The translations under genes and the position numbers were made by a program. Below, piece after piece: positions 19,766 through 49,321 of a stretch of DNA of 64,000 nt; positions within the stretch are counted from its first letter, which is position 1, and every line of letters starts with the position of its first letter. The DNA comes from Patescibacteria group bacterium UBA3531 (GTDB lineage Bacteria > Patescibacteriota > Minisyncoccia > Phycocordibacterales > UBA3531). The stretch covers positions 1,018-65,017 of the forward strand of contig DFOW01000004.1 in NCBI GenBank assembly GCA_002376885.1. The letters run 5' to 3'. The notes beneath the pieces were generated by a model. The model had not been told where the DNA came from. It was given only the letters and a program-made list of their open reading frames with translations, and made no database searches.

Positions 19766-19891
19766 CACAACTTTCAAAAGAGCTCTCGGAGCCCGAGCGG
19801 GCCGGTGTCCCGCTTGCAGGACGAGCGAGGGTGAGAGCGAGCAAAAAATCCCCGCTGGGGGATTTTATTGCGTGTCTTTTGAAAGTTTGTG
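19766..19891 (+). repeat. MITE-like GC-rich repeat, copy A (TIRs CACAACTTTCAAAAG ... CTTTTGAAAGTTTGTG)
   Basis: Shares the core AGAGCTCTCGGAGCCCGAGCGGGC...GAGCGAGGGTGAGAGCGAG plus a 3' hairpin/T-run with copies at 34582, 45986 (inverted) and 49193. Confidence 0.65.
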
Positions 19892-19898
19892 CAAAACC

Positions 19899-21212
19899 CT
19901 AGTAACTCAAAAGCCTCTTCGCCTTCTCATGTGTCCTAATCTTCTCATGCGCCTTTGCTTCAATTTGCCTAATTCGCTCTCGGGTCACTCCAAACTCCTG
20001 CCCCACTTCTTCAAGCGTTCTCATTACCCCATCGTTTAATCCATAACGCATTTCAAGAATCTTTCTTTCTTTTGGTGAAAGGTCTCCTAAGATTTCACGA
20101 ATCTGATCTGCCAAAATTCTGCGGGCACTTTCATTATCGGGTGACAAAATTTTATCGTCTGGAATAAATTCTCCCAGTGTTGATTGTTCGTCTCCACTAT
20201 CCCCCACCGGCTTTTCGAGCGAGATGGTTGTTTGATTAATCTTTTCAATCTGATGAACCTTTTCTACTTCAATTCCCATTTCAGTTGCAACTTCCTCAGG
20301 AAGCGGTTCGCGTCCCAAGTCTTGCGACAATCGCCTTACAATTTGCTTATACTTTGCGATGGTTTCAACCATGTGCACGGGAATTCGAATGGTTCGAGAT
20401 TGATCGGCAAGTGCCCGGGTAATACTTTGCCTGATCCACCAGGTTGCATACGTTGAGAACTTAAATCCTTTGGTGTGATCAAACTTCTCTACCGCCTTAA
20501 AGAGCCCCAAATTTCCCTCTTGAATAAGGTCAAGGAGCGTAAGATCGGGACTCCTACCAATGTATTTTTTAGCGATAGAAACCACGAGTCTCAGGTTGGC
20601 TTTAGCGAGCGCTTTTCGTGCTTCATCGTCCCCTTCTAAAATTTGCTTTGCAAGATCTTTTTCATCTTTTGCACTAATCAATTTATATTGACCGATTTCT
20701 TTAAGGTACATTTGCACAGAGTCAAGAGATGGATCACCTTGTGGCAAATTCTTTAGAATATCATCTTTGTCATCGCCATCAGTATCGAGATTAATAAATC
20801 CACCCGATTCTAAAACATCAATTTGTGCTTCGCTAAATCGTTCATAAAGTTCCTCTAAAAAGAGGATATTATTCTCTACATCTGGGAATTCTTTTAAGAG
20901 CTCACTGTAAGTAACAAATCCTCTTTTTTTACCACGCCTAATAAGAGCGTCTGCTTTTGACTCAAGATCCTCCTTCTTTTTTGAAACACGTCTTGTTGCT
21001 TTTTTTGTGGTTTTTTTGGCAACCTTTTTCTTAGCTACTTTTTTGGTTTTTGTAGCTTTTTTTGTTGTTTTTTTAGCTACTTTCTTTTTTGAAACTTTTT
21101 TTAATGCCTTTTTTTTACTTGCCCGTCCGGTCGCCGGGCTTGTTTTTTTAGCCACCTTTTTTCGGGTGGTTTTTTTAGCCTTCTTTTTAGTTGTCTTCTT
21201 TTTTGCTGGCAT
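19899..21212 (-). CDS. rpoD: RNA polymerase sigma-70 factor RpoD with an N-terminal lysine/alanine-rich (histone H1-like) tail
   Basis: Regions 1.2-4 are conserved. The first ~75 aa are KKTT/AKK repeats. Confidence 0.9.
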
Positions 21213-21255
21213 CCTAATAAAAATTCTTAATTAATAACGTTTTGTGACACGTGTT

Positions 21256-21280
21256 CGTCCCGTGGAATTTTAACAGGACA
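21256..21280 (-). promoter_or_regulatory. Conserved 25-bp palindromic motif about 44 nt upstream of rpoD (between dnaG and rpoD)
   Basis: tcgtcccgtggaattttaacaggaca, plus the conserved leader ATTAAGAATTTTTATTAGG-ATG in gene orientation. Confidence 0.55.
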
Positions 21281-21285
21281 AGTTC

Positions 21286-22989
21286 TTATTGATTTTTTAA
21301 TTTATCTAATTCTTGTTGAATTTTAAAATGTTCTTTTTGATACTCTTCTGCTTTTTTAAGATCTTGCGTGTGCTCTGCCTCTTTTAACTTTTTGAAGAGT
21401 TCTGTACTTTTGTCGCGAAGCACTTCTGCTTTATAACTGTCGAAGAGTTCGTGTATTTGATCGATGATTCTATCCGAGTCTTTATACCATAACTCGGCCT
21501 TAAATTCTAGTTCTGTTTGCTTATTTTTATCGAGTTTTTGTATTCGTTTTTTGAGTTCATCTTCACCAACTGTTTCGCGTACTTCTCGCGCAACCTCATC
21601 TACTGAAATCTTTTCTTTCATCGACCATAAATACAAACCAATGATTTCTTCAATTATTCTTTCTTTTCTTTCTTTTACTATTGTTTGTTCTTCTTTTTGT
21701 TTTTGATGTACGGATTCTTTCGGGGTCTCCTTATCTACCTTCTCAAGTTCTTCTCTTAATGCCTTCTCAGGGATATCTGCTTTTTGCGACACAAGAGTTA
21801 CAAAATGAGCCTGATCAATCTTATTTTCTATACGGGATAAAAGCGGTACAAGAACCGTGTTAACGGCCTGTTTTAAGGCGCGAGATTCTTTTTGCGTCTC
21901 TATTAAGCGCTCCATTATGTATTCAACAATGTGCTTTGCGCCCTTTACGCCATAGAGCCACTTTGTTTTGTCTTCTAAAATAAGATCTGCTGGATCTTTT
22001 TTATCAATAAGAACAACTTTCACATTGAGCCCTGTGGCAAGTGCCATCTCTCCCCCGCGAAGGAGTGCTCGCTTGCCAGCACCGTCTGAATCAAACGCAA
22101 ACACAATGGTACCCGCTAAACGCTTAATAATGTTTAAGTGGTCGGCTGTAAGAGCAGTCCCCGAGACAGCAACCGTATTGGTAATGCCTGCCTGGTGAGA
22201 CATAATGACATCCATTTGCCCCTCAACAAAAATACACTCATTCTTTTTTCTGATTGCTTCTTTTGCTAAATGATAGGGATACAAGATGCGAGACTTGTCG
22301 TAAAGAAGTGTTTGAGGGGTGTTTATATACTTACCGCCCTTCTCATCATTGCCATAAATACGCCCCGAAAACCCAACCACGCGCCCCATGTGATCAGACA
22401 AAGGAAACATTACCCTGTTCCTAAAACGATCGTAGTGGCTATTGTGTTTATCTCCAGGAATAATCATTCCCGCCTTTTCTATCAAGTCTCGTCCGTAACC
22501 CTTCTTTTCTAAGTGTGTAAGCAACGACCTCCATTCATCGGGAACATAGCCAATCTTAAAGTCCTTAATTGTTTGCTCGGTGAGTCCTCTTTTTTTTAAG
22601 TAAGAAACAACCTCTTTATTGAGCTCTAGATTTTCTTTGTAAAACTCTGTTGCTTCTTCTAAAAGTTTAAAGAGTCTCTCTTTTTCTCCTTGAGTTTTTG
22701 GATCAACTTTTTCAATCTCAACCCCCGCTCTGTCTGCCAAGATTTTAAGTGCTTCTCTGAACTCAACCCCTTCAATTTCTTCAATAAAGCTAAAGATGTC
22801 TCCCCCGCGGTTACATCCAAAACAATGGTATGAATCACGCCCAGGAGATACAAAAAATGAAGGAGTCTTTTCGTTATGGAAGGGGCACGGCGCCTTAAAA
22901 TTACCTCCAGCTTTCTCGAGTTTTAAATACGAACTCACCACGTCAACGATACCAAGGCGAGATTTAATTTTCTCTACCGTGCCGCTCAT
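21286..22989 (-). CDS. dnaG: DNA primase
   Basis: CPFHNEKTPSF...CFGC zinc-binding domain and a TOPRIM core. Confidence 0.95.
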   Translation of the reverse strand: MSGTVEKIKSRLGIVDVVSSYLKLEKAGGNFKAPCPFHNEKTPSFFVSPGRDSYHCFGCNRGGDIFSFIEEIEGVEFREALKILADRAGVEIEKVDPKTQGEKERLFKLLEEATEFYKENLELNKEVVSYLKKRGLTEQTIKDFKIGYVPDEWRSLLTHLEKKGYGRDLIEKAGMIIPGDKHNSHYDRFRNRVMFPLSDHMGRVVGFSGRIYGNDEKGGKYINTPQTLLYDKSRILYPYHLAKEAIRKKNECIFVEGQMDVIMSHQAGITNTVAVSGTALTADHLNIIKRLAGTIVFAFDSDGAGKRALLRGGEMALATGLNVKVVLIDKKDPADLILEDKTKWLYGVKGAKHIVEYIMERLIETQKESRALKQAVNTVLVPLLSRIENKIDQAHFVTLVSQKADIPEKALREELEKVDKETPKESVHQKQKEEQTIVKERKERIIEEIIGLYLWSMKEKISVDEVAREVRETVGEDELKKRIQKLDKNKQTELEFKAELWYKDSDRIIDQIHELFDSYKAEVLRDKSTELFKKLKEAEHTQDLKKAEEYQKEHFKIQQELDKLKNQ

Positions 22990-23013
22990 TCGAGTAGAAT
23001 ACTATTATTTTAT

Positions 23014-26000
23014 TTAGTTGTCCTCTCCTTCGTTTTCTTCTTCTGGCTCTGGGGCAACTTCATCGATAATGTCACCAAAGTGACCTTGAGAGAGTCCTGT
23101 TCCTGCTGGAATAAGGCGTCCAATGATTACGTTTTCTTTCAGTCCTCGTAAGTTGTCAGTCTTTCCGTTTACTGCTGCGTCAATCAAAACCTTTGTAGTG
23201 TTTTGGAATGAAGATGCTGAAAGGAAGCTTCCTGATGAAAGCGCAACTTCTGAGATTCCAAGAAGTACGGTGTCTGCAACTGCTTGCTCTCCTCCGTCTT
23301 CTTTAACACGTGCGTTCTCGATCTCTACGTCTTCGGTTTCTACAACTTCTCCTGCTACAAATCGAGTGTCTCCTGCTTTTTTAATCTTCTTTCGTGAAAG
23401 CATTTTTCGCATAATCACTTCAATGTGTTTACGTGAGATACTTGCTCCTTGTGTTTCGTAGAGTCTACTTGCTTCGCGCAAAATATAATCTTGCGTCTTT
23501 TCTGCACCTGCATATTTGAAGAGTTCTTGTAAGTGTGCTGATCCGTCAGTCAAAAGGTCTCCACGGTCTACATGGTCTCCCTTTTTAACAACCGGTGTTC
23601 GCACTGGTGGAACTTCAAATTCAAGTGACTTTTCTTTCTTGCCTTTCATTTCTCCTTCATCTGCTAGAATTGTAATGATCTTTGATTTACCGTCTGATTT
23701 AACTTCGGCAACGGTTCCTGCAATGGTAGTAATAATAGCCGCATTCTTTGGCTCTCTTCGTTCAAAGATTTCTTCAACTCGTGGAAGTCCAGTGGTGATG
23801 TCTCCTCCAGCTGACGCGATTCCTCCTGCATGGAAGGTACGCATAGTAAGCTGAGTTCCTGGTTCACCAATCGCTTGAGCTGCAATAACTCCCACTGCTT
23901 CTCCAATCTCAACTGGTTTATTTCGTCCAAGGTCGAGTCCGTAACATTTTTGACACACGCCTCGAGTTAATTTACAGGTAAGTGGTGAAAATACTGACAC
24001 ACTTGGAATCGCATCTTCTTCAATAAGGTCTGCATCTCGTTTTGAAAGAAGATGACCTTTTTTAAAGAGAACTTTGTTTCCTTGTTTAATGTCTTTTGAA
24101 ACAATCTTTCCGTCAATATCGGCACTGATTCCTTTAGTAAATCCTGACCCTTGCGGAATAAAGTATTCTCGTCCGTCTTTGTCGCCACAATCATCTGCAG
24201 TAATAATGATGTCTTGAGCAACATCAACCATTTTTCGGGTAAGGTATCCGGCACGTGCAGTGTTAAGTGCGGTGTCGGCAAGTCCCTTTCGTGCTCCGTG
24301 AGTAGTAATAAAGTACTCAAGAGGAGAAAGTCCTTCTTTGTATGATGGGATAATTGGGAAGTCGATGGTTCTACTCTTCACGTCTGCAATGAGCCCCTTC
24401 ATTCCTGACATTTGCGAAAGCTGACTAATAGAGCTTCGTGCCTTAGATGTTAAGAGATCGTATACAGAACCGTTCTTATTGAGTTTCCCTGGAATTGCTT
24501 CCTCGATTTGATTCTTTGCGTCTTGCCATGCAGCAATAACCATTCGGTATCGTTCTTCTTCAGAAAGAAGTCCTTTTTCGTAATTTCCTTCGATGGTTTC
24601 TACTTTTGTTCGAGCTTCGTCGATAATGACTTTCTTTTCTTCTTCAATGTCTGGAAGGTCTTCAATACCCCAGGTTGTTCCTGAATTGGTTGCATATTTG
24701 AATCCAAAATCTTTCAGCTTGTCTAAAATATCTGCAATGTTTTCAACTCCGTATTCTAAGATAAGGTCTTCAACAATAGTGTTAATTTCCTTAAGTGTTA
24801 CTTCGTGATTAATGAATGGGAAATCTTTTGGAAGAATACTGTTAAAGAGGATTCGTCCTACTGATGTTTCAAACACTTTCCCCTCAAACTGTTTGTACTT
24901 TGGATTATCAGTTCCGAGAACTTTTACTTTTGATCGGAAACTAATTCGTCCAAATTCATATGCGGTAATAGCTGCGTTTGGTGAAGAAAATGCTTCTCCC
25001 TCTCCCTTTTCGCCATCAACGGTCTTAGTCATCCAAAAGATTCCAAGAACCATGTCCATTCGAGGACCAACGATAGGGTCTCCGTTTCCTGGCTTTAGAA
25101 GGTTTTTATTTGCAGACATGAGGTTGCGAGCCTCGGCTTGCGCCTCTTCAGAGAGAGGAACGTGCACCGCCATTTGGTCACCGTCGAAGTCTGCGTTAAA
25201 TGCAGTACATACAAGTGGGTGGATTTGAATAGCGTTTCCTTCAATCAAGATTGGTTGGAACGCTTGAATACCAAGTCTGTGGAGCGTCGGCGCTCGGTTT
25301 AAGAGCACATACTTTCCTTTAATCACCTCTTCCAAGATTGCCCATACTTCTGGGATCCCTTCGTCAATTAGTCGGTTTGCGCCACGAATGTTAAAGGCCA
25401 ACTCTTGTTCAAGAAGTTTTGAAATAACAAATGGTCGGAACAATTCGAGTGCCATGTGTTTTGGAAGCCCACATTGATCAAGTTTTAAGTGAGGACCAAC
25501 CACAATCACACTTCGTCCAGAATAATCTACTCGTTTACCAAGAAGGTTTTGCCTAAAGCGTCCTTGTTTACCTTTAAGCATGTCTGCCATTGATTTAAGT
25601 GGACGACGCTGTGCTTGGCTCATTGCTTCTGTTCCCCCCTTACGCAAAGAGTTATCAATCAAGGCATCAACTGCTTCTTGCAAGATTCGTTTTTCGTTAC
25701 GCAAAATAACATCAGGAGCGTTTAAGTCCTTAAGTTTCTTAAGCCTGTTGTTTCGGTTGATAACTCGCCTGTACAAGTCGTTAATGTCACTGGTTGCGTG
25801 TCGTCCACCATCAAGTGCCACCATTGGTCGCAAGGCTGGCGGAAGAACCGGAATAGTAGTTAAACACATCCATTCAGGCCGTACACCTGCTCTCCTCATT
25901 GATTTGATAAGGTTAAGTCGTTTTTGTACCCGTGGTCGTTCGGTTGCTCCTGCAGTTTCAAAGTGAGCTTCTGTATCTTTTAGAAGCTTATCAAGATCGA

Positions 26001-26727: not shown

Positions 26728-26732
26728 AGTGA

Positions 26733-29879: not shown

Positions 29880-30149
29880 TACGCGTTTTATGTTTATCTG
29901 CGGCTAATAAAGCGGAGTGCAAAATGCACCCGAGAAAAAGAAACGCCCCGTGACCCTAATGCGAGGCATTCAACTATGTATTTGTTTATGAAAAGACAGT
30001 ATTCCTCTTATTAAAAATGTCTATGTAGGGACAGCCTGAAAGAATATCAAACGAGGCCGAGCTCTACAAGGGTTCACACAAGTATATTGAAAATGGCTAT
30101 CTGTGTCAAGAATTTAGCTTTAAAATTGGACTCTCTTGTGGATAACCCA

Positions 30150-34003: not shown

Positions 34004-34053
34004 TAGCGGCTTTTGATACTACAGAAAAGCATTTTTAGTGTCAACAGAACTTT

Positions 34054-34082
34054 ATTGACTTTGAATACAAGAGGAGTAGAAA
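34054..34082 (+). promoter_or_regulatory. Sigma-70-like promoter (TTGACT-16-TAGAAA) for a GC-rich two-gene cassette
   Basis: Hexamers directly upstream of SD GGAGG and the ATG at 34103. Confidence 0.35.
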
Positions 34083-34102
34083 TAAAGGTGGAGGAAGTCG
34101 CC

Positions 34103-34306
34103 ATGCGCTGGGCAAGCCAAACTGTTTCAGATGAAGAGCGGGATGCGCTCGATGCAGCGCTTCACGCAACCGAAGGTCTCGGTGAAGACGATCTGTCGAC
34201 GAAAAACATGAGGCGTGCAATGTTCGTTCTGCTCATTGTCGCTGCTCTCGTGATTGGACTCGGCGTCATCAAGCCGGCACTCGAGAACGGTGGATCATTC
34301 CTGTAA
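34103..34306 (+). CDS. GC-rich cassette gene: small single-TM protein
   Basis: MRWASQTVSDEERDALDAAL...FVLLIVAALVIGLGVI with SD GGAGG. About 60% GC. Confidence 0.4.
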   Translation: MRWASQTVSDEERDALDAALHATEGLGEDDLSTKNMRRAMFVLLIVAALVIGLGVIKPALENGGSFL

Positions 34307-34317
34307 AGGAGGGCCAA

Positions 34318-34524
34318 ATGTTCCGAGCAAAGACTAGCAACCCCAATGAATGGGGCTGGGGCGGGGGCAGGTACGCCGACTACGAGGAAGAAGAGCCGTT
34401 CTACCTCGTGGACGCCGTGATCGTTCTCGTTGCGGTGTGCGCATACGGCGTATGGTGGCTCATCTCTACGCCGTTCAAGAAGGCGCGTGCCGCCATCGTC
34501 AACCGCCGCGCGCGGAACTGCTAG
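34318..34524 (+). CDS. GC-rich cassette gene: small single-TM protein
   Basis: MFRAKTSNPNEWGWGGGRYADYEEEEPFYLVDAVIVLVAVCAYGVWWLI. About 62% GC. Confidence 0.4.
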   Translation: MFRAKTSNPNEWGWGGGRYADYEEEEPFYLVDAVIVLVAVCAYGVWWLISTPFKKARAAIVNRRARNC

Positions 34525-34581
34525 CCAAAGGGCGCGAACGTTCATTCGTTCGCGCCCTTGCTGTATATTTTCCAACGTTAC

Positions 34582-34690
34582 GTTTTTAAGAGCTCTCGGA
34601 GCCCGAGCGGGCTGGTATCCGCAGGATGAGTGAGGGCGAGAGCGAGAAAAAAATTCCCGCCGGGGAATTTTATTTCGTGTCTTAAAAATG
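34582..34690 (+). repeat. MITE-like GC-rich repeat, copy B
   Basis: AAGAGCTCTCGGAGCCCGAGCGGGCTGG...GAGTGAGGGCGAGAGCGAG plus the aattcccgccggggaatt hairpin. Flanked by inverted TTTTTAAGA. Confidence 0.65.
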
Positions 34691-34703
34691 TAATGTTAGC
34701 TTC

Positions 34704-36932
34704 CTATTTCGCAATCTTCACTGCCTCGTCAAATTTAACCGAAAGCATTTTTGAAATTCCATCACTCCCCATGGTTACTCCATAGAGGACACCTGCTCGA
34801 GACATGGTCTCTCTGTTGTGAGTAATAATAATTAACTGTGCATGACGTGCTAAGTTTTCAAGCATGTCTCCGTATTTACGAGAGTTTGCTTCGTCGAGCG
34901 CTGCATCGGTTTCATCGAGTACCAAAAACGGAGGCGGGTTAACCTGACTCATTGCAAACAAAAGTGCAATTGAAGTCAGCGCACGTTCCCCACCAGAGAG
35001 CATTTCAAGCCCCCGGATTTTTTTACGTGGAAGGTTTACCGAAATATCAATTCCCTCTTCAAACTCTTCTTCGTCTCCGCCAAGTTGTGCAAGCTCTTCT
35101 TCGCTCTTTAACTTTCCGATGCGAGCAAACTGGAGCCCTGCCTTCCCTCCCCCAAACATGAGCTCGAAGAACTTTTGGAATTCAATATTAATTTTTCCGA
35201 TTCCTTTTTTAAATTCAACTTCAAGTTTTTCTTCAAGATCTTTAATAACTTCTTTAAGAGACCCTTCGCTCTTTGTTAAATCTTCGATTTCTTTTTCTAA
35301 AAATTCATCTCGGCCTTTGATTTCCTCATATTCACCAAGCATAGCGTCCCCTGCAGGGCCAATTTCTTCAATACGAATCTTTAATCGTTCAATCTCTTTT
35401 TTGGTAACTGCGGCCCCGCTTGAAGAATCCCAGCCGTCTCCTCCATCTTTTTTAAAGATTGCTTCAAGTTCGTTTTTACCCTCTTCCCCATAGATTCTCC
35501 CTGCTTCATGAAGCTCATGCTCTACTTCTCGATCGCGTATTCCAAGAGCTTCTTCGCGTCCCTTGAGCGCTTCAAGTCCTGCTAGAAGCTCTGCGCGTTT
35601 TTCTTTTGCTTCAAAATATTCACGCTCCTTTGTCATTCGTTCTTTTGCTTTTTGGGTAAGCTCACCCTTGAGTGCCTCCAAACGGTCCAGCAGCTCTTTT
35701 TCTGACTCTCCTATTTTTTTGATGTCGTCTTCAAGCTTTTCTTTTTCGCCCCTCAATTTTTCAAGCTCTTCGTTTATAGCTTCACCAATAGAGCTCTCTT
35801 CGCTATCAATATTTTCTTCTTTAAACGACATAAGCGCATAGCGAATCTCTTCAAGTCCAGAAACAGCTTCGTCAAGTGTCGAAGAAGATTTTGCATCTTC
35901 AATAATTCGTTCGAGCTCGTCAATAAAACTCCCTACATTTACTGCTGGGAGCATATGTTCTCCATTATCACTTCCTGGCGTCTCTGCTTCACGCTCTTTC
36001 AGCTCAACAATACCTTCAAGACGCCCGAGCATTCGGGCAAGTTCGTCTTTTTTACTACGGAGATCGTGGAGGGATTTTTCGATCCCCAATTGTTCTTCGC
36101 TTACTTCTTCTTGATCGGTTCCACCTCTTTTTGAATCAAGTTCGTCAATTACTTTTTCAATCTTTCCGAGTTCGTCTTCTGGATGCTTCCGTTCTTTTTC
36201 GATCTCTTTTTTACTTTCGATGATGTATGCCCCCTCTTTTTTAAAGAATTCTTTATAGAGACCAAGTAGCTCATCTTTAAGTGCTTTTGCCTTTTCAATC
36301 TTCTCTGCTTCTTTTTGAAGGAACCGTAAATGCCCCCCAATCTCACGACGGAGCGACTGTGCCTCTTTTATGTTTTCTTTTGTTTTGGTGAGTTTTTTAC
36401 CACTCTCTTCAATCTTCCAATGGTACACACGAAGCCCAAGCGCATCCTCAATCATTCCGCGTCTATCTTTTAATGATGCTCCTAAAATCCTATCAGCCTC
36501 GTTTTGGCTAATAATGTGGTGGCTGGATGCACCAAGAGAAACTTGCGAAAGAAGTTCGATAATGTCTCGCAGTCGTACCTTACTCCCATTTATTGAGTAT
36601 TCGTTTGCGCCGTCACGATACACTACACGCTCGATAGCAACTTCTGGGAAGTCGATATCAAACTGTTTTTTACTATTATCAAAAACAAGTGTTACGCTTG
36701 CCCGGTTCATTCGGGTTGCTCCACCACCACCATTAAAAATAAGATCTTCTCCTTTTTTACCCCGGAGCGACTTCATTGACTGCTCCCCGAGCGTCCAACG
36801 AAACGCCTCTGCAATGTTTGATTTACCAGATCCATTAGGACCCACAATAGCCGAGACCGGTGAGTCAAAATCGAGAACTGTTTTTTTAGCAAATGATTTA
36901 AAGCCGTTTAATTCCAGCCGTTTTAGATACAT
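34704..36932 (-). CDS. smc: SMC-like chromosome segregation ATPase (short, 742 aa)
   Basis: N-terminal Walker A GPNGSGKSN, coiled coil, C-terminal LSGGERALT signature and Walker B FLVLDETDAALD. It is shorter than the canonical ~1180-aa SMC. Confidence 0.8.
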   Translation of the reverse strand: MYLKRLELNGFKSFAKKTVLDFDSPVSAIVGPNGSGKSNIAEAFRWTLGEQSMKSLRGKKGEDLIFNGGGGATRMNRASVTLVFDNSKKQFDIDFPEVAIERVVYRDGANEYSINGSKVRLRDIIELLSQVSLGASSHHIISQNEADRILGASLKDRRGMIEDALGLRVYHWKIEESGKKLTKTKENIKEAQSLRREIGGHLRFLQKEAEKIEKAKALKDELLGLYKEFFKKEGAYIIESKKEIEKERKHPEDELGKIEKVIDELDSKRGGTDQEEVSEEQLGIEKSLHDLRSKKDELARMLGRLEGIVELKEREAETPGSDNGEHMLPAVNVGSFIDELERIIEDAKSSSTLDEAVSGLEEIRYALMSFKEENIDSEESSIGEAINEELEKLRGEKEKLEDDIKKIGESEKELLDRLEALKGELTQKAKERMTKEREYFEAKEKRAELLAGLEALKGREEALGIRDREVEHELHEAGRIYGEEGKNELEAIFKKDGGDGWDSSSGAAVTKKEIERLKIRIEEIGPAGDAMLGEYEEIKGRDEFLEKEIEDLTKSEGSLKEVIKDLEEKLEVEFKKGIGKINIEFQKFFELMFGGGKAGLQFARIGKLKSEEELAQLGGDEEEFEEGIDISVNLPRKKIRGLEMLSGGERALTSIALLFAMSQVNPPPFLVLDETDAALDEANSRKYGDMLENLARHAQLIIITHNRETMSRAGVLYGVTMGSDGISKMLSVKFDEAVKIAK

Positions 36933-37673: not shown

Positions 37674-37688
37674 ATTCGTGTAATTGAG

Positions 37689-38911: not shown

Positions 38912-39012
38912 AGTGGCTCTAGTATACGGATTTATGCTTGTTTTGCAATATAAGGGGGTTTTAGTGTCGATATTTCGTCATTCGTGCCAAAAAATATACA
39001 GCACCCCCCATA

Positions 39013-39041
39013 TTGACAAATAGCATACTTTATGTTAGTAT
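39013..39041 (+). promoter_or_regulatory. Sigma-70-like promoter (TTGACA-17-TAGTAT) for a GC-rich mini-gene
   Basis: Perfect -35 hexamer, 17-nt spacer, and TAGTAT -10. Confidence 0.45.
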
Positions 39042-39114
39042 ATCTGCAGTTAAGACGAGTCAAAGTTCTGGGTTGGAACTCCCTGTCTTGTTGTTCTCTA
39101 AGGAAAGGCAACAC

Positions 39115-39282
39115 ATGAGCATTCCCTTCCAGGAAAGGATTACGGAACGCGTCAAGGGAACGGAGCGACGGCGGATCCAGGAGATCCAGAACCTCCATCC
39201 GTTCTTCTTCCGCCGTAGCTTCCTGCTCGCCCTCTCGGTGATCCTGACGGTCTTCTACTACATCGAGTTCTTCCCGAAGTAA
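39115..39282 (+). CDS. GC-rich cassette gene: small single-TM peptide (55 aa)
   Basis: MSIPFQERITERVKGTERRRIQEIQNLHPFFFRRSFLLALSVILTVFYYIEFFPK with SD GGAAAGG. Followed by the 39306 hairpin terminator. Confidence 0.4.
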   Translation: MSIPFQERITERVKGTERRRIQEIQNLHPFFFRRSFLLALSVILTVFYYIEFFPK

Positions 39283-39305
39283 CGGGGACTGCCACGCCCA
39301 GGGCT

Positions 39306-39351
39306 CGCCCATGGAGGCCACCACACAAACAACTTTGGTTCTGTGTGTGGT
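39306..39351 (+). terminator. GC-hairpin terminator
   Basis: ggccaccacacaaacaactttggttctgtgtgtggtggcc followed by a T-run. Confidence 0.6.
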
Positions 39352-39468
39352 GGCCTTTTTCTTATTTCGATATCCCCAAGAAACCACATTTGGGAGTGTC
39401 CACCCTAAACAATTTTTCTGCGAAAAACTGAGAGGGCAAGCAGGAAAATAATTAAAAAATTTCTCGTA

Positions 39469-39591
39469 GAAACACAGTTTGAAGTGCTGCCGCAGACGAT
39501 TTTGATTGGTCCACCCTTTGGGTGGAAAATCGTCGAGGATAAGGAAACACCACCGCTGGAGTGGGGTTTCCGGTGCTTCAAGCTGTGTTTC
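39469..39591. repeat. 123-bp element closed by 19-bp terminal inverted repeats (GAAACACAGTTTGAAGTGC / GTGCTTCAAGCTGTGTTTC) with internal hairpins; candidate sRNA or MITE
   Basis: Perfect or near-perfect long-range pairing of the ends. Internal stems: gacgatttt...aaaatcgtc, ccaccc-ttt-gggtgg and ggaaac...gtttcc. Confidence 0.4.
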
Positions 39592-39658
39592 TTAAAAAAT
39601 AAAATAAATAGTAGCGGCCCGGGCCCCGTGTGGGGGCCTCGGGCCGCGCGATGACGCT

Positions 39659-39850
39659 CTAGGGCGCCTTTCCCTTCTCCTCGGGCGGAGTCTGTTGTGC
39701 GGAGCCCAACGGCTCCACACCCTCCGGGTGATCGTCTTCGAAGGACCCCTCGCGGCGCCCGTCGAATGGGCGCGCTTGCCGGGACGGCATGGGATCTCTC
39801 GGCGGCGACTTTTCGCGAGGGCTACCGCCCCCGTTTCGAACAAAAGACAT
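39659..39850 (-). CDS. GC-rich cassette gene: small Gly/Pro/Arg/Glu-rich disordered protein
   Basis: About 66% GC. SD GGAGG lies 10 nt upstream of the ATG, with an upstream TTGCAG-17-TTTAAT promoter-like site and a downstream GC hairpin plus T-run on the minus strand. Confidence 0.35.
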   Translation of the reverse strand: MSFVRNGGGSPREKSPPRDPMPSRQARPFDGRREGSFEDDHPEGVEPLGSAQQTPPEEKGKAP

Positions 39851-39922
39851 CGTCTTCTTGCCTCCGTGGGTTTTAGGGTACCCACCATTAAACACAAACT
39901 CCCTTATTTCTGCAAGGGAGTT

Positions 39923-40534: not shown

Positions 40535-40568
40535 GCAAGCGATATTTGTTTTGCTATAATAGTCCCGT

Positions 40569-43500: not shown

Positions 43501-43754
43501 TCCCGAGTGGTGTAACTGCACTTTGTGGTGGAATCATTGAAGAGGTACGAACCGTTACCACCAAAAAAGGAGAGCGAATGGCATTTGTACGTATGGCAGA
43601 TTTTGATACTGCCATTGAGGTAGTATTCTTCCCATCAAGTTATCAAAAATTTAAAGAGCACTTAGTGCCTGACATGTGCGTTGCTATAAAAGGACGCATC
43701 AGTAATCGCAATCAAGAAAAAAGCATGGTTGCAGAGGCAATCAAGCTATTGTAG
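40569..43754 (+). CDS. dnaE: DNA polymerase III alpha subunit
   Basis: N-terminal PHP domain (HLHTHSHYSLLQG), polymerase core and OB fold. 1061 aa. Confidence 0.95.
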   Translation: MSFVHLHTHSHYSLLQGLSKIEGLVDAAKKDKMPALALTDHGNLYGAVKFYKACKKAEIKPIIGADIYIAENSMKDTQPGSTNRTFHLVLLAETSEGYKNLIRLLTEAHLEGFYNYPRADKALLKKYSEGLIALSGDIQGEVPRALWNKDEERAKELVQEYKAIFGDNNFFIEISHHPHLERHDEIMEGLVKVAKETKTPLVAGQGSYYLTPEDKEAHRTLLGIQSSHATSESARFFSAEEDYSFIDTKTAKDLFKGHKEAIENTVKIAERCNADIEPPGWVFPLVELEEGKTADEQLREYAYKGLEDRGMEKTKEVIDRLEYELDTIKQKGFSPYFLVVADLLYYARKHNILTTIRGSVAGSLVTYLTKITTVDPIEYMLPFERFLNPQRPSAPDIDMDFADDRRDEVIEYAKEKYGEDKVAQIGTFGTMLARGVVRDTARALGYPYGAGDRIAKMIPFGSQGFPMTIEKALDLEPDLKEAYENDREVTEIIDMARKIEGNARHCSVHAAGVVMAPEPLTEYVPLQREQKGNKIITQYDMHDVEEVGLIKFDFLGIRNLSILAHAVGIVEKTLGEKVDIENVPLDDKKVFEILSRGETMGLFQLNGAAMTRFLIDLKPTTIHDINAMIALYRPGPMKNIPDYIARKHGKQAVSYYHPKMKNFLERSYGILVYQDDLLSAALELAGYTWETVDKFRKAVGKKIPEEMAKQHKIFVEGCQKHSGMSKKEAEGLWDLFEPFQGYGFNKAHAASYGKVAYQTAYMKANYPSEYMTAVLTAESGDVEEIARIVNECKRMELEVLPPDVNESFGGFTVLKDPDGNPKDDKIRFGLYTIKNLGEEISNVIISERKKNGPYKSYQDFLERVRHQNLNKRSLEALIKSGSLDNLGERGQMLANLESVLAYSRDGLKQLEDQTSLFGLMEDDASLPQLRLEESEPASADDKLGWEKELLGLYLSGHPLDKHKKRFEGKKTIKDYLSLPSGVTALCGGIIEEVRTVTTKKGERMAFVRMADFDTAIEVVFFPSSYQKFKEHLVPDMCVAIKGRISNRNQEKSMVAEAIKLL

Positions 43755-43778
43755 AGTACGAACAGAGAGGAGGGCACC

Positions 43779-44009
43779 ATGCCCAAACGATCCAAGTGGG
43801 GCTCGACCTGCCAAATCCCACACTGCGGAAAGAACGAAAACCGAGACCATGTCCGGATGACATTCTTCCGGAGGGGGGCCGGCGTAGTCTTCTTGTTTCT
43901 CTGCAGATGGCATCGGGCCATGAACACTCGAGCAATCCGCGAGAAGCGCGACTTCGGTCCGTTCATGTACACCGGTCGGGATAAGAGCCCGTCGCGCCAA
44001 GCTGCGTGA
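43779..44009 (+). CDS. GC-rich cassette gene: small Cys/His-containing protein
   Basis: About 60% GC with SD GAGGAGGG. MPKRSKWGSTCQIPHCGKNENRDH... It is inserted between dnaE and thrS and ends with a GC hairpin. Confidence 0.4.
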   Translation: MPKRSKWGSTCQIPHCGKNENRDHVRMTFFRRGAGVVFLFLCRWHRAMNTRAIREKRDFGPFMYTGRDKSPSRQAA

Positions 44010-44032
44010 CGGGCTCCGCCCTTTTTGTTACT

Positions 44033-45784
44033 ATGAAATTCATGGAAAAAGACGCTATTTCGAAAAAACGGCACTCTCTTGCACACGTTTTGGCTATGGC
44101 AGTACTTGAAAAAGACCCTAACGCCAAGCTCGCCATTGGACCCGCAATTGATACGGGTTTTTATTATGATTTTGAACTATCTTCCCCTCTTTCTGCAGAT
44201 GATCTTCCGGCACTTGAGACCCGAATGAAGGAACTGCTAAAAGAAGGCCTATCGTTTGAGGGACGCGAAGTTTCTCCAGATGAAGCACAAGAATTATTTA
44301 AACAATCCCCTTACAAACTTGATTTAATTGAAGAATTTACGAACGAAGGAAAAACTCTAACTGCATATTCAAGTGGAGATTTTACTGACCTTTGCGCAGG
44401 TGGACACGTTGATACTACAAAAGACATTGACCCAGATTCATTTTCTCTTGATAAATTGGCTGGTGCTTACTGGAGAGGTGACGAAAACAATCAAATGCTT
44501 ACACGAATTTATGGACTCGCATTTGAAACAAAAAAAGAATTAGAAGAGTACAAAAAACAGCAAGAAGAAGCTGAAAAACGAGACCATAGAAAGCTTGGGA
44601 AAGAGTTAGACCTTTTTGCTTTCTCTCCCCTTGTTGGTCCAGGACTCCCGCTCTTTACTCCCAAGGGTTCTCTTTTACGTGACTTGTTAGATGACTTTGT
44701 ATGGGAGCTTCGGCAAAAAGACGGTTACGACCGAGTAGATATTCCTCACATTACAAAAATTGATCTTTTTAAAACAAGTGGGCACTGGGACAAGTTCGGA
44801 GATGAACTCTTTCAAGTTAAAACAAGAGAGGATCATGTCTTTGCACTCAAACCAATGAATTGCCCACACCATACGCAAATTTATGCGCGTAAAAACCATA
44901 GCTATCGAGAGCTTCCTGTTCGCTATGCAAACACCACAAAATGTTATCGCGACGAACAAACAGGAGAATTAAGCGGTCTCTCACGTGTGCGCGCCTTCAC
45001 ACAAGATGATGCCCACGTTTTTTGTAGAACCAATCAAGTAGAAGAAGAAGTTGGAAAAGTCTGGGACATTGTAACGGGATTTTACAATGGTGTTGGTTAT
45101 TCTGATCTTCAAGTAACCCTTTCAGCGCACGACCCCAACAATATGGAAAAGTATCTTGGAGACAAGGCGCTCTGGGAACAAGCTGAGGGAATCTTAGGAA
45201 AAATAATTGAAGAAAAGACTGGCAAAAAAGCAGAAAAGATAGAGGGAGAAGCAGCATTTTATGGACCAAAAATAGACTTTATTACCAAAGACTCGATTGG
45301 AAGAGAGTGGCAGATTGCAACCATTCAGCTCGACATGAATCTACCAGAACGCTTTGACTTAACCTGCACAAACGAAAAAGGAGAAAAAGAACGAATCGTT
45401 ATGATTCATGCAGCGATCATGGGATCAATTGAACGCTTCCTTTCTGTTTATATAGAACATACGGGTGGGGTGTTCCCTCTTTTCCTTTCCCCTGTTCAGG
45501 TTGCAATCCTCCCTATCGCAGACAGCCATAAAGAATATGCCGAGGAAGTTAGAAAAACACTCGAAGAAAATGGAGTCCGTGTTGAACAGAGAAGCGAAGA
45601 TGAAACGCTTGGAAAAAAGATTAGGAGCGTAAAAGAACAAAAGATTCCTTACTTTATTGTTATCGGAGACAAAGAAGTTGAAAGTAAGAGTGTAAAGCTT
45701 GAGTCTCGAAGTGGAGATGGAGAAGAAATGAATACAGAAGAACTTCTCTCAAAACTCAAAAAAGAAATAGATGACAAAGCCTAA
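44033..45784 (+). CDS. thrS: Threonine--tRNA ligase
   Basis: Class II aaRS motifs and a ThrRS zinc site (CPHH region). The N-terminal editing/TGS domains appear reduced. Confidence 0.9.
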   Translation: MKFMEKDAISKKRHSLAHVLAMAVLEKDPNAKLAIGPAIDTGFYYDFELSSPLSADDLPALETRMKELLKEGLSFEGREVSPDEAQELFKQSPYKLDLIEEFTNEGKTLTAYSSGDFTDLCAGGHVDTTKDIDPDSFSLDKLAGAYWRGDENNQMLTRIYGLAFETKKELEEYKKQQEEAEKRDHRKLGKELDLFAFSPLVGPGLPLFTPKGSLLRDLLDDFVWELRQKDGYDRVDIPHITKIDLFKTSGHWDKFGDELFQVKTREDHVFALKPMNCPHHTQIYARKNHSYRELPVRYANTTKCYRDEQTGELSGLSRVRAFTQDDAHVFCRTNQVEEEVGKVWDIVTGFYNGVGYSDLQVTLSAHDPNNMEKYLGDKALWEQAEGILGKIIEEKTGKKAEKIEGEAAFYGPKIDFITKDSIGREWQIATIQLDMNLPERFDLTCTNEKGEKERIVMIHAAIMGSIERFLSVYIEHTGGVFPLFLSPVQVAILPIADSHKEYAEEVRKTLEENGVRVEQRSEDETLGKKIRSVKEQKIPYFIVIGDKEVESKSVKLESRSGDGEEMNTEELLSKLKKEIDDKA

Positions 45785-45985
45785 AGGGGTTTTCCATTCA
45801 AAAGAAGTACTACATCATTTTAGATGCAAACAATGTAATAAGTGGTGGAGTGTTGGTGATGCGCCTTCTCGTAAGAAGATATGGTACTGCCCTTGGTGTG
45901 GTGCACAACAGTAATAAATTTGGTATTGCTTGCCCGTTTTAATTCAAGAGAATTTGATTCGGGCGCATGGTGTGGGACTGAACAA

Positions 45986-46113
45986 CACTAACTTTCAAAA
46001 GATACGAAATAAAATTCCCCAGCGGGAATTTTTTTCTCACTCTCACCCTCGCTCATCCTGTAAAACAGGACACCGGCCCGCTCGGGCTCCGAGAGCTCTT
46101 TTGAAAGTTGTGT
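45986..46113 (-). repeat. MITE-like GC-rich repeat, copy C (inverted orientation)
   Basis: The reverse complement matches copy A nearly end to end, including the TIRs CACTAACTTTCAAAAG / CTTTTGAAAGTTGTGTT. Confidence 0.65.
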
Positions 46114-46246
46114 TAGGAAATAAAAAGTTTATTAGCATCCACAGGAGATTTGCTTGGTTAAAAAATCTCCGAGGATAGAGCGAGTCTCCGCCGGAGAGAC
46201 GAGCGTCTGGTAAACTTTTTATTTACACAACACACTCTCAAAACAA

Positions 46247-46266
46247 AAATCCCCCGGTCGGGGGAC
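46247..46266. terminator. Bidirectional terminator hairpin (tcccccgg-tcg-ggggga) with T/A runs on both sides
   Basis: Between the converging thrS-side region and the membrane gene at 46290. Confidence 0.5.
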
Positions 46267-46289
46267 TTTTGTATAAGGAACTTGTTTGA

Positions 46290-46709
46290 TTATAGCATTA
46301 AGACAATCGCAATTGTCATGAGGACAAACGATACAAGGTAATAAAGTGCTCCAATTACCGTTATACCCTTATCTTTATCTTCGTATAAAATGCTATTAGC
46401 CATTACTGTTGCCGTAAACCCAAGCCATACAATAATTCCTAATTCAACTGCCTTACCGATTGAGTCAACTGATAGTACTGCCACAAAAAGATAGAGCACG
46501 TAAGACATTACAAGCGTAACAATCAGTCCAAGACCCATAGCCTTTTTCGCATCTGCGTCAAATTTCCCCGAAACAGGCTTTCCTATTCGCGCCATGTAAT
46601 CCATCCATTTTTTTCCAAAAAGTGGTCCGTACCAAAGCATACCAACAATGGTTCCGACAATGGTGGCTACAATAATCGCTGTGTAATCAACTGAAACTAC
46701 AAAAAGCAT
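46290..46709 (-). CDS. DUF1761-like membrane protein
   Basis: Four TM helices. Confidence 0.5.
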   Translation of the reverse strand: MLFVVSVDYTAIIVATIVGTIVGMLWYGPLFGKKWMDYMARIGKPVSGKFDADAKKAMGLGLIVTLVMSYVLYLFVAVLSVDSIGKAVELGIIVWLGFTATVMANSILYEDKDKGITVIGALYYLVSFVLMTIAIVLML

Positions 46710-46741
46710 ACTGTTTTATTTTTCTATTGTTCAAATTCGAC

Positions 46742-47506
46742 CTATAAATAGTCTAGCAAGAATTCATCAAAGAAATCGAAATTCTCGTAACCAAACTGGA
46801 TTAAAACTCCAAAATTCCCTTGAAATAAAAGGATTCCAAGGAAGATAAGGAAAATCCCTCCAATCACCTCAATCCACCTTAAATACTTGGCCATTGCCTG
46901 GATATAAGTAGTTGCTCGAGCATAAAAAAGAGCAATCCAAAGAAACGGAATGGCAAGCCCAAGAGAAAATACTCCCAGTAAAAATGCGCCCTGAAGAACA
47001 GTGTTTGATTGTGTTGCAAGGGCCAAGATTCCTGCCAAAATAGGACCAACGCACGGTGTCCATCCAACTGCAAACGAGCTCCCGATAACAAACGAACTTG
47101 ATGGCTTTCCTACTGTTAAAAAGCTTGGCATCTTCATTCGTCGTTCGGTTTGCAAAAACGGCAACTTAAATACCCCGAGCATAAACAAACCAAAAGCAAT
47201 TACGAGGATTCCTCCAATACGTCTCATCCATAATTGAAAGTCTGCAAACTGTGCGCCTAAAAATCCTGCAAACGTACCAAATAAAATAAACACAAGAGAA
47301 AACCCAACGATAAAGAAGAGTCCGTTTAAAAAGATTTTTCGGCGAGCGGCTTTTGCCGTTTCCGGATTCTCTAAATCCTTTGTAGAGACACCACTAATAA
47401 ACCCTAAGTAGCCCGGAACAATCGGCAACGTGCACGGTGCCAAAAACATTAAGAGCCCTGCAAAAAATGCTGATCCAATGGCGATTCCTCCTATTTCTAA
47501 AATCAT
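46742..47506 (-). CDS. ccdA: Cytochrome c-type biogenesis / thiol-disulfide transporter CcdA (DsbD family)
   Basis: APCTLPIVPGYLGF and PCVGPILA conserved Cys motifs. Six TM helices. Confidence 0.85.
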   Translation of the reverse strand: MILEIGGIAIGSAFFAGLLMFLAPCTLPIVPGYLGFISGVSTKDLENPETAKAARRKIFLNGLFFIVGFSLVFILFGTFAGFLGAQFADFQLWMRRIGGILVIAFGLFMLGVFKLPFLQTERRMKMPSFLTVGKPSSSFVIGSSFAVGWTPCVGPILAGILALATQSNTVLQGAFLLGVFSLGLAIPFLWIALFYARATTYIQAMAKYLRWIEVIGGIFLIFLGILLFQGNFGVLIQFGYENFDFFDEFLLDYL

Positions 47507-47507
47507 A

Positions 47508-48053
47508 TTAGTATTGCGCTAACACTTCTTGGGTCTTTTCTCGCATTTCGCTAAGTGGCATAAACCCTCGCTTATGAATAACAATTTCCCCTTCTTTATT
47601 CACATATATTGTCTCTGGCATAGAGAATCCTCCGATGCTTCGGTAAAATGAATCTTCTGGGTCAAGCAAAAAGAGCATTCCATCTGCGATCCCCCTATCT
47701 TCAACATAGCTTTTTGACTCTTCAAGCGACTCTTTTCTATTGACTGCAATCACTTGTATATCATCACCAAACTCTTCTTGAAGCTCCGCAAAATCAGGAA
47801 GCTCGGTTACGCAAAACGGACACCATGTTGCCCAAGAATTTATAATCAAAACCTCTCCTTGAAAATCACTAAACGAATGTGTATTTCCGTTATGGTCTTC
47901 TAATGTCAAATCCGGCAAAGGAAAAAGTCCTCCATTATTAAGAGCAACTTCCTCGCTTCCACTTAAACTAAAGTAACCAAGTGCAGCGAGTATCCCAATT
48001 ACTAAAACAATTATTGATCCTGGTACTAAGTATGTTTGTGTGCCTTGTGCCAT
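47508..48053 (-). CDS. TlpA/ResA-like thiol-disulfide oxidoreductase (thioredoxin fold)
   Basis: WATWCPFC active site with an N-terminal membrane anchor. Confidence 0.85.
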   Translation of the reverse strand: MAQGTQTYLVPGSIIVLVIGILAALGYFSLSGSEEVALNNGGLFPLPDLTLEDHNGNTHSFSDFQGEVLIINSWATWCPFCVTELPDFAELQEEFGDDIQVIAVNRKESLEESKSYVEDRGIADGMLFLLDPEDSFYRSIGGFSMPETIYVNKEGEIVIHKRGFMPLSEMREKTQEVLAQY

Positions 48054-48064
48054 ATTTCTATCTG

Positions 48065-49159
48065 TTACTTATATACTTCAGTATTTGGGTGGACCGATAC
48101 CCATGAGAACCAAAAGCCATCGAGGTGCGGAATAAGAGTTCCGTCTTGATCAATAATAGTGACAACACCTGACTGGTTTTTGGTAATAGTAAGAGTGTTA
48201 CCTGCAAAGGTGTCTGTGATTGTTCCAACAGGAAGCGCTCTTTCTAAATAAGCTTTAGTTTGCTCATCAATTTCAATACCCAATACAAAGTCCTTTTCAA
48301 ACAACCTATCGTCTTGGTTGGTAACTGGGAAGAAGAGTCCTTCGGTTGTGTAGTAGTCGCCGTAGGGGTCACGTCCGTAGGAACGTGTATACCCCGTGTC
48401 TTGCGAGAGAACTTTTGTATTAGGATGTGCCTTTTTCCAATCTTCCCAACGAACCGTATCTGCCGGCAACAAATTGAGGCGTGCGCCAGTTTCTACACCA
48501 AGCACTGCTTCTCCTAACACTTGGGACCAAAGACTTTCGTCATCCTCATTTGCAGCACGGTTATACATTAAAAGATTTGATTGCCATAGCCTTCCCGACA
48601 CACCAAATTCTTGCGGTTCTCCATTTACTCGGCGATCAAACACTACGCCTGTACCACACAATGGACAGTACGTTACAAGTACTGGCTCACCCCCGATAGT
48701 ATCGTTTACAATTTCATGCCACACCAAAATTTGATACGGGTAAAATCGTGCTTCTCCGTCTATAACAAGCCCAAGTCCTACATCAGTCTGATCATTCAAA
48801 AAATCATCACCGTCTTTTCTTGAAACAAACTTTGGGTCATCAATTGCGGGGATTCCGTCTTTTGGTGGTCCGCCGCTTTCAATCTCACCAAGCGGGATTG
48901 AGTGCTTAACACCGTCAGTTACAAACACTTCGCGATTTGATTCTGATCGTTTTTGTGTATCTTTTACTTCATTCTTGGTTGTTCCATTAGCTTCAGAACC
49001 CTCTCCCACTTCTCCTTCTATCTGCTCCATCATTTCAGTTTCCTCTCCTAGAGGGACTGTTTCGCCACTCGGAATAGGAAAGCTATTTTGGTGCCTCAAA
49101 ATTAGAAACGCCCCAAGAGCGATAAGAATAATCCAAACAATGGCATTTTTTATATCCAT
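48065..49159 (-). CDS. DUF3179 domain protein
   Basis: GIPAIDDPKF...YCPLCGTG region typical of DUF3179. N-terminal TM helix. Confidence 0.65.
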   Translation of the reverse strand: MDIKNAIVWIILIALGAFLILRHQNSFPIPSGETVPLGEETEMMEQIEGEVGEGSEANGTTKNEVKDTQKRSESNREVFVTDGVKHSIPLGEIESGGPPKDGIPAIDDPKFVSRKDGDDFLNDQTDVGLGLVIDGEARFYPYQILVWHEIVNDTIGGEPVLVTYCPLCGTGVVFDRRVNGEPQEFGVSGRLWQSNLLMYNRAANEDDESLWSQVLGEAVLGVETGARLNLLPADTVRWEDWKKAHPNTKVLSQDTGYTRSYGRDPYGDYYTTEGLFFPVTNQDDRLFEKDFVLGIEIDEQTKAYLERALPVGTITDTFAGNTLTITKNQSGVVTIIDQDGTLIPHLDGFWFSWVSVHPNTEVYK

Positions 49160-49192
49160 CCCATTAGAAATTTACACTAATAAAATTAAAAA

Positions 49193-49321
49193 ATAATATC
49201 CCTGAAAGAGCTCTCGAGTCCGAGCGGGCATGGTTTTTGCGGAAGCAAAAGAGCGAGGACGAGAGCGAGAGCCAAAACCATCGCTGGTTGTTTTGAGCTC
49301 GTGTCTTTCGGGGATATTATT
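49193..49321 (+). repeat. MITE-like GC-rich repeat, copy D (divergent)
   Basis: AAGAGCTCTCGAGTCCGAGCGGGC...GAGCGAGGACGAGAGCGAGAGCC core. TIRs AATAATATCCCTGAAAG / CTTTCGGGGATATTATT. Confidence 0.6.

Follow-up and report, generated by a model that had tools for sequence, protein, structure and literature searches.

Four Copies of a Probable Structure-Constrained Mobile Element

The 64,000-nt stretch of contig DFOW01000004.1 analysed here (hereafter the window) contains four repeats, A to D, which we conclude to be copies of an uncatalogued, structure-constrained, non-autonomous mobile element. This verdict is carried by a shared fold with covarying stems and by comparisons of filled and empty sites between relatives. 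The window has a GC content of about 42%. Its proteins find their nearest named homologues in Paceibacterota, Vogelbacteria and Parcubacteria, and its organism was therefore assigned to the Patescibacteria (Candidate Phyla Radiation, CPR).

All four repeats were present at the positions and on the strands given by a previous sequence-only reading of this DNA. The family pattern CTCTCG-N3-4-CCGAGCGG-N15-45-GAGNGAGGNNGAGAG matched the window exactly four times and was absent from 100 shuffles, and the covariance model R1 scored the four copies at 88.7–100.1 bits (E 1e-26 to 3e-30). The copies can be aligned across their full length, measure 126–141 bp and are free of open reading frames (ORFs).

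Copy A as a whole element spans 19764–19893 (+; minimum free energy (MFE) −59.1 kcal/mol, z −5.2; R1 100.1 bits, E 3e-30) and is composed of the 5′ arm of helix P1 (19766–19781), the conserved core P2 (19782–19838), the hairpin P3 (19841–19871) and the 3′ arm of P1 (19875–19891). Copy B extends from about 34572 to 34704 (+; R1 88.7 bits), its limits being those of the DNA inserted relative to the empty site in the syntenic locus L059; the stop codon of smc is completed by its last base. Copy C lies at 45984–46115 (−; R1 97.5 bits). Copy D at 49186–49326 (+; z −5.5; R1 99.4 bits) is the most divergent, with P1 formed by AAUAAUAUCCCUGAAAGA and UCUUUCGGGGAUAUUAUU, including a U-G pair, and with GUCC/GGAC in place of GCCC/GGGU as the inner helix of P2.

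The shared sequence blocks proposed previously needed correction. The core AGAGCTCTCGGAGCCCGAGCGGGC was exact in A, B and C, with AGAGCTCTCGAGTCCGAGCGGGC in D, and the 3′ block GAGCGAGGGTGAGAGCGAG was exact in A only, with one or two mismatches in each of the other copies. Copies A and C do lie in opposite orientations; "near-identical" translated into a measured identity of 88.5%, with several of the differences being compensatory and located inside P3. Instead of hundreds of copies, four per 64 kb extrapolated to a genome of roughly 1 Mb would give tens.

A Conserved Three-Way Junction

The same three-way junction was predicted for each of the four window copies, with z-scores between −3.9 and −5.5. 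What had been described as terminal inverted repeats (TIRs) is the closing helix P1 of this junction. The arms are real and pair in all four copies, with G-U pairs on the strand of CUCUCG polarity (the named strand), and they come in three unrelated sequence versions, namely CACAACUUUCAAAAG in A and C, AACGUUACGUUUUUAAG in B and AAUAAUAUCCCUGAAAG in D. Across the family, P1 was 17–34 bp long, as judged from single-sequence folds, and differed in sequence in nearly every copy. Many members have tandem G·A or UAA/GAN internal loops in P1 at 7–8 bp from the junction, with a second purine loop (GCGA/GAAG or GA/GA) about one helical turn farther out.

The conserved core of P2, CUCUCG-NAG-NCC/GAGCGGGCAYGG...GAGCGA/GGNN-GAGAG plus a variable hairpin, is built in the order CUCUC, 3-nt bulge, 4-bp helix and C-GA-G facing C-GA-G, followed by the loop GAGCGGGCAYGG, the variable hairpin and GAGCGA ... 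GAGAG, where CUCUC pairs with GAGAG and the two C-GA-G segments form tandem purine pairs. P3 is a conserved hairpin with the loop CNCGCNGGG; P2 and P3 are joined by NNAG, and P3 and P1 by GU(G).

Support for this fold came from an alignment of 36 sequences, in which 94.3% of the cells paired, compared with 38–51% in controls with slid partners. Double, compensatory changes were found at 15 of the 26 pairs, and the covariation score of 0.425, against about 0.1, was reached by none of 500 shuffles. The compensatory changes thus exceed the controls, with part of the core having been fixed by the search pattern. Position 39 in the P2 loop and position 118 in the P3 loop, both left free by the pattern, were G:C in 32 sequences and C:G in four, and the pair was never broken. 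In divergent copies, the helix CUCUC/GAGAG is replaced by CUCGC/GCGAG. A pseudoknot between CUCGC of the P3 loop and GCGAG of the 3′ strand of P2 was dropped as a candidate, showing no covariation where G39:C118 does covary.

In 34 of 35 members, folding favoured the named strand over its complement, by a mean of 11 kcal/mol. From G-U asymmetry only, we infer that the strand of CUCUCG polarity would be the one that folds. Of the small RNA family suggested previously, the fold was borne out, being conserved, strongly covarying and strand-biased.

Distribution and Comparison with Known RNAs

A pattern scan of metagenomes yielded 35 loci with GC contents of 0.35–0.71, all of the same architecture, and R1 revealed five further divergent copies within the metagenome loci; element length in the family was 125–190 nt. 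Its carriers belong to at least two ultra-small bacterial phyla, Patescibacteria and Omnitrophota. Locus L018 is from Patescibacteria and L032 contains a 16S rRNA gene of CPR style that is interrupted by an insertion, and the CTP synthase encoded beside the copies in L029 is 75–79% identical to proteins of Candidatus Omnitrophica/Omnitrophota.

The repeat family is uncatalogued. No Rfam 15 model matched any copy in the window or in 27 loci at the gathering score or at E values up to 10, which answers the proposed comparison with Rfam in the negative, and no description of the element was found in the literature searched by sequence string, accession and topic. Searching plasmid and phage collections by blastn with one member gave no match. 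Pattern scans of IMG/VR returned no genuine match, the single contig obtained (L008) being a chance hit without the rest of the motif; likewise, a scan of genome contigs with a genome-specific, AGAG-prefixed pattern gave only chance matches in high-GC genomes, none with the rest of the motif. A weak R1 match at 13440–13536 in the window was an ordinary hairpin pair and was rejected as a family member.

Multi-copy self-cleaving ribozymes and orphan structured RNA motifs such as the Weinberg 2017 set in Rfam resemble the family in being GC-rich islands in AT-rich intergenic DNA with conserved junction nucleotides, covarying stems, a length-variable peripheral hairpin and no fixed neighbour gene; it is set apart from them by the lack of any Rfam match and by evidence of insertion at the DNA level. 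A novel type of catalytic RNA, self-cleaving or other, present in many copies without a fixed gene partner like hammerhead or twister, would account for the compact three-way junction with its about 30 conserved junction and internal-loop nucleotides, for the tertiary pair between a loop and an internal loop and for the variable hairpin, in keeping with the absence of a conserved gene context. Since there is no likeness to any known ribozyme model, a closing helix of 17–34 bp is atypical for such ribozymes and no permuted forms were seen, catalysis as the defining property of the modelled fold appears improbable.

Evidence for Insertion

Discrete insertion of the element is indicated by three comparisons of filled with empty sites, made at two Omnitrophota operon junctions (L029 and L057) and at window copy B. 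In L029, two elements (343 nt) are situated between pyrG and kdsA and are flanked by GATGAACCT and GATGAATCT, which contain a 9-bp direct repeat; the left repeat copy retains the stop codon of pyrG and the right one the start codon of kdsA. In four Omnitrophota relatives, whose pyrG is 75–85% identical to that of L029, the two genes abut or overlap. The gap between kdsA and kpsF in L057 measures about 455 nt, holds one element together with a second long-stem structure and is flanked by the 6-bp sequence CGATGA, at a site where relatives have an ATGA overlap of the two genes. L013 has the same ATGA on both sides, corresponding to a direct repeat of at least 4 bp.

The third comparison involves L059, the closest relative of the window, with an SMC protein of 83% identity and the conserved gene order rnc-smc-...-rnr. 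There, the GC-rich cassette that precedes copy B in the window (cassette B) is kept with its promoter and GC-rich terminator, the terminator following directly after the smc stop codon, and copy B is absent. Copy B is also missing from the syntenic locus L060 (SMC 72% identical).

Copy A is bordered by the direct repeat CCCTAG, read from the sequence at 19760–19765 (+) on its 5′ edge and at 19897–19902 (+) on its 3′ edge, the latter containing the rpoD stop codon (CTA on this strand). We infer that this repeat represents a target-site duplication. A third CCCTAG at about 18381–18386 marks the left edge of the GC-rich cassette A, and its occurrence at all three junctions of cassette A and copy A suggests that one insertion followed another at the same site. 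The copy in L018 is bounded by the 6-bp sequence ATCTCT; this organism is related to that of the window, and the copies of the two are at non-syntenic positions. Taken together, the direct repeats were 9 bp long in L029, 6 bp in L057, window copy A and L018, at least 4 bp in L013 and 0–5 bp for window copy B, and the inserted DNAs shared no conserved end nucleotides.

Of the previously proposed transposable element, mobility is therefore borne out by the filled and empty sites with their short direct repeats, and the logic of a miniature inverted-repeat transposable element (MITE) is not. According to the latter, the repeats would be internally deleted DNA transposons whose TIRs are bound by a DDE transposase encoded elsewhere, with cut-and-paste transposition and target-site duplication. 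Their small size, lack of ORFs, multiple copies and inverted termini agree with this, as do the presence/absence polymorphism between relatives with direct repeats of 6–9 bp and the inverted pairs in Omnitrophota, which could serve as two transposon ends. The ends themselves do not: TIR sequence is not conserved among copies, termini being wholly different even within one genome (A/C, B and D) and in nearly every metagenome copy, and they covary as a helix with G-U pairs on one strand. Repeat lengths of 4, possibly 5, 6 and 9 bp may also count against a classical MITE; the conservation of a core of at least 26 nt across GC contents of 35–71%, together with a covarying tertiary pair, would be surprising in decaying relics. 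Because the ends of MITEs are conserved and their interior decays, the opposite of the present observation, we consider this explanation quite unlikely.

The same division emerged from a comparison with bacterial MITEs and palindromic repeats (Correia/NEMIS, ERIC/IRU, RUP, Nezha and Rickettsia palindromic elements). These are likewise ORF-free, multi-copy sequences of 100–190 bp with long hairpins, located intergenically and often at gene 3′ ends, with short flanking direct repeats and a presence that varies among relatives; the Rickettsia elements invade RNA genes as well. These known families, in contrast, do not extend beyond a genus or family, and their terminal repeats persist as the interior decays, whereas in the present family the termini differ, the interior is conserved over at least two phyla and 35–71% GC, and both stems and tertiary pair covary. 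Of traits reminiscent of short interspersed nuclear elements, direct repeats of variable length are present and an A-rich tail is not.

Genomic Context of the Copies

The neighbours of the elements in the window and in the loci are housekeeping genes. All-against-all ORF clustering and Pfam scans of 29 neighbours revealed no recurring neighbour gene, the clusters obtained consisting of spurious ORFs that run across the element itself. No transposase, integrase or reverse transcriptase was found among the neighbours in the window or in any locus, and a cognate transposase with matching TIRs, for which a search had been proposed, was thus not found there; the only protein reminiscent of a reverse transcriptase beside any copy was one with an RNase H/RVT_3 domain in L034.

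In about 11 loci, among them those of copies A (rpoD) and B (smc), no more than about 12 nt separate the 3′ end of the element from the stop codon of a convergent ORF; the 5′ end is similarly close to a stop codon in two loci. The previous placement of all window copies at gene 3′ ends needed correction. Copy C is 200 nt away from the thrS stop codon, and copy D is found where the DUF3179 gene begins (start codon at 49159) and not at its 3′ end, with an ArsR-type gene ending 45 nt away. An apparent excess of aminoacyl-tRNA synthetase genes among the neighbours (thrS, lysS, gltX and alaS) was considered as a T-box-like link, which was rejected, as orientation and position were inconsistent.

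In Omnitrophota loci, elements occur as head-to-head pairs with facing 5′ ends, each pair combining a CUCUC-type with a CUCGC-type element, spaced either by 28–100 nt or by 1–3.7 kb with uncharacterised ORFs in between. The ORFs between the paired elements of L033 and L044 belong to no Pfam family and show no mutual similarity.

In L032, the 16S rRNA gene (2384–4706, −; 2323 nt) is interrupted at about E. coli position 788 by an insertion of about 810 nt with the junctions GGAUU|...|AGAUACCC. An exon U precedes the 5′ splice site and the last base of the insertion is G; its match to group I introns scored 35.8 bits, below the Rfam cut-off. The element is placed after P9 of this intron and before the 3′ splice site. 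As in the intervening sequences and introns of Patescibacteria rRNA genes (PMC11270868), a family member thus resides in a CPR-type 16S rRNA insertion, and its long terminal stem may be a plausible RNase III substrate. It differs in lying in the 3′ periphery of the group I intron rather than directly in the rRNA, and all other copies of the family are intergenic.

Ordinary trans-acting small RNA (sRNA) genes, for instance for protein-binding or scaffold RNAs that are useful to the cell and have spread by duplication and horizontal transfer, would be expected to show much of what the fold displays: strong covariation, a tertiary pair, tandem G·A or UAA/GAN loops spaced periodically along P1, and a strand preference. 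One copy is followed after 12 nt by a tRNA on the same strand, and free space is usually larger on the 5′ side of the element than on the 3′ side, both of which would also suit such genes. Insertion between translationally coupled genes or into an intron is not expected of a sedentary sRNA gene, however, and precise insertions of the former kind with duplication of the junction sequence were found, as was the copy inside a group I intron. Presence and absence differ between closely related genomes, related organisms have their copies at non-syntenic positions (L018 and the window), the head-to-head pairs are too tight for promoters, and no consistent promoter signal was seen at the copies. This explanation is therefore regarded as unlikely, and the data are better matched by a structure-constrained mobile element than by a classical MITE or by an sRNA gene that stays in place.

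The hairpin with T-run noted previously corresponds to P3. In A, B and C, this hairpin is preceded by an A-run and followed by a U-run, giving a weak terminator score; seen from the convergent gene, a hairpin and then six or seven U residues come directly after the stop codons of rpoD and smc. These runs are absent from the GC-rich members, and the intrinsic terminator consensus, which would include a U-tract conserved across the family, was matched weakly and in A, B and C only. Hence, the intrinsic terminator did not stand as a family feature, the hairpin being an internal P3 enclosed by the closing stem, and its terminator role looks like a local secondary use.

As an observation apart, positions 1–164 of L012 and 3330–3530 of L021, which come from two related samples, cover one and the same lysS-flanked locus, and the orientation of the element core is reversed between them. 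The core sits between perfect inverted arms of 30 bp, with L012 starting exactly at an arm, and the difference reflects either a genuine inversion or an ambiguous assembly of the inverted repeat.

Relation to the GC-Rich Cassettes

Four regions of the window stand out with 55–70% GC in the 42% GC genome, located at 18387–19758 (cassette A), about 34013–34571 (cassette B), 39013–39360 (+) and 39600–39900 (−). All contain an AT-rich, sigma-70-like promoter, a GC-rich terminator and one or two ORFs without a Pfam family. As described previously, two copies of the repeat adjoin such cassettes, A and B both lying directly 3′ of one; the L018 copy, too, is placed 3′ of a self-contained promoter-ORF-terminator cassette that is GC-richer than its surroundings. 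The two terminators of cassette A (18913–18943 and 19710–19740) agree in 30 of 31 bases, and its ORF2 (19045–19698) has 77 homologues, of which all organism-named ones are from Patescibacteria.

The proximity would make sense if the repeat were a folded single-stranded DNA recombination site (attC- or REP/REPIN-like), used by a tyrosine or HUH recombinase as the 3′ module for moving the cassettes. The position of the three copies directly 3′ of cassettes points in this direction, as do the CCCTAG sequences at each of the three junctions of cassette A and copy A, the resemblance of the Omnitrophota inverted doublets to REPINs and the stability of the purine motifs in DNA. Cassette B is kept without the element in the relative L059, though, which refutes the repeat as its vehicle; three loci holding homologues of cassette A ORF2 lack the element, and the other AT-rich carriers have no GC-rich neighbour.

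Integron attC sites conserve structure and not sequence, unlike the present family with its highly conserved sequence core; moreover, no RYYYAAC...GTTRRRY core sites were found at the ends, and copies are solitary or in inverted pairs, never in arrays. REP sequences are simple palindromes of 20–40 nt with a GTAG or CGTC tag and without target duplication. REPs and REPINs, mobilised by RAYT, a Y1 transposase resembling those of IS200/IS605, were reportedly described by Bertels and Rainey in 2011 as structure-dependent, strand-specific inverted doublets that form a larger hairpin, with singles occurring too. The Omnitrophota loci do have inverted doublets, each arm of which is a three-way junction of 130–190 nt, in contrast to REP/REPIN; neither the tag nor the size agrees, and no RAYT gene, other Y1 transposase or integrase was found near the copies in the window or the loci. 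A recombination site of this kind is thus highly improbable, and cassettes and elements probably share insertion-tolerant sites.

Examination of the ORF2 family revealed a conserved hairpin, GCGACGCAGUCGARAGACACUGUCGC, in the 5′ leader upstream of every member examined, namely at about 18990–19035 in the window and at about 9905–9960, 1215–1265 and 9910–9960 in L051, L052 and L053, respectively. It is a candidate cis-regulatory leader. In L051, a complete Patescibacteria genome (CP174360.1), the ORF2-family cassette lies between direct repeats of ~50 bp (about 9850–9900 and about 10660–10715), consisting of UAUACUACCUAGGUAAC and then a terminator hairpin; the part CCUAGGUAAC of this repeat resembles CCCTAGTAAC beside window copy A.

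Proposed Mode of Action

Returning to the mobile element, we propose that the fold forms in one strand of CUCUCG...GAGAG polarity, most likely an RNA transcript, and that a putative trans-encoded machinery recognises this fold to copy or insert the element. The element is probably transcribed, and the fold as a handle for trans-acting machinery is a proposal that we hold with even confidence. Such a handle would account for an interior that stays conserved from one phylum to another as the ends drift through compensatory change. In the AT-rich genome of the window, P3 with its A/U runs on both sides would probably double as a terminator of rpoD and smc that works in both directions, a secondary, lineage-specific function.

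Several points weigh against this proposal. Neither the window nor any of the loci yielded a mobilising protein, and the flanking direct repeats vary in length (4–9 bp overall); that of copy B may be accidental, as its context is A-rich. When flanking repeats were sought blindly as longest common substrings, using noisy, MFE-defined element ends, the result was not significant. Many of the "invariant" core columns were fixed by the search pattern itself. The C-GA-G tandem mismatches and GCGAAGC loops are stable in DNA as well, and for this reason RNA and single-stranded DNA are inseparable by sequence. Head-to-head pairs only 28–100 nt apart leave little room for separate promoters, and the placement of the high-GC group in Omnitrophota relies on one neighbouring gene.

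A more far-reaching and doubtful possibility is that the repeats constitute a new class of mobile structured RNA in Patescibacteria and Omnitrophota, in which the fold itself would be catalytic or a handle for a reverse transcriptase or recombinase, and which may spread via an RNA or single-strand intermediate to sites beside stop codons and into introns.

The genomes of both phyla are very small and non-coding DNA is scarce, so that a repeat which keeps an elaborate fold, crosses phyla and is still inserting was unexpected. If the fold is formed by RNA, a widespread orphan RNA class has been wholly missed by current annotation; if the element moves through its fold, bacteria would have an element defined by structure and not by its ends, with bearing on the uncoupling of genes in operons, the origin of terminators and the peripheral domains of rRNA introns. 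For practical purposes, the covariance model R1 can be used to mask or annotate the elements, some copies of which lie within about 100 nt of a contig end and may break assemblies.

Other Structured Elements in the Window

Copy C has a head-to-head partner at 46120–46224 (+) with a different, simpler long-stem fold. It consists of a P1 formed by AAAUAAAAAGUUUA and UAAACUUUUUAUUU, a hairpin, GAGGAUAG and then a hairpin with a CCGCCGG loop; a weak R1 match was obtained in this region at 46147–46233. By alignment, the partner resembles a second structure at about 39468–39592 (+), which folds with a z-score of −7.2. The two make up a second small family with a closing stem of 14–21 bp, a hairpin, the conserved sequence GAGGAUAR and a hairpin with a CCGCYGGAG loop, and neither of them matched Rfam.

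At 629–863 (−), a group I intron (Rfam 89 bits) was detected inside a tRNA gene at about 580–885, where ARAGORN makes no call; the tRNA exon halves surrounding it are UCCGCGGUAGCUCAAUGGUAGAGCA... and ...GCAGGUUCGAGUCCUGCCCGCGGAGCCA. Group I introns in Patescibacteria tRNA genes were recently reported (PMC13011429), and the case in the window agrees with this report.

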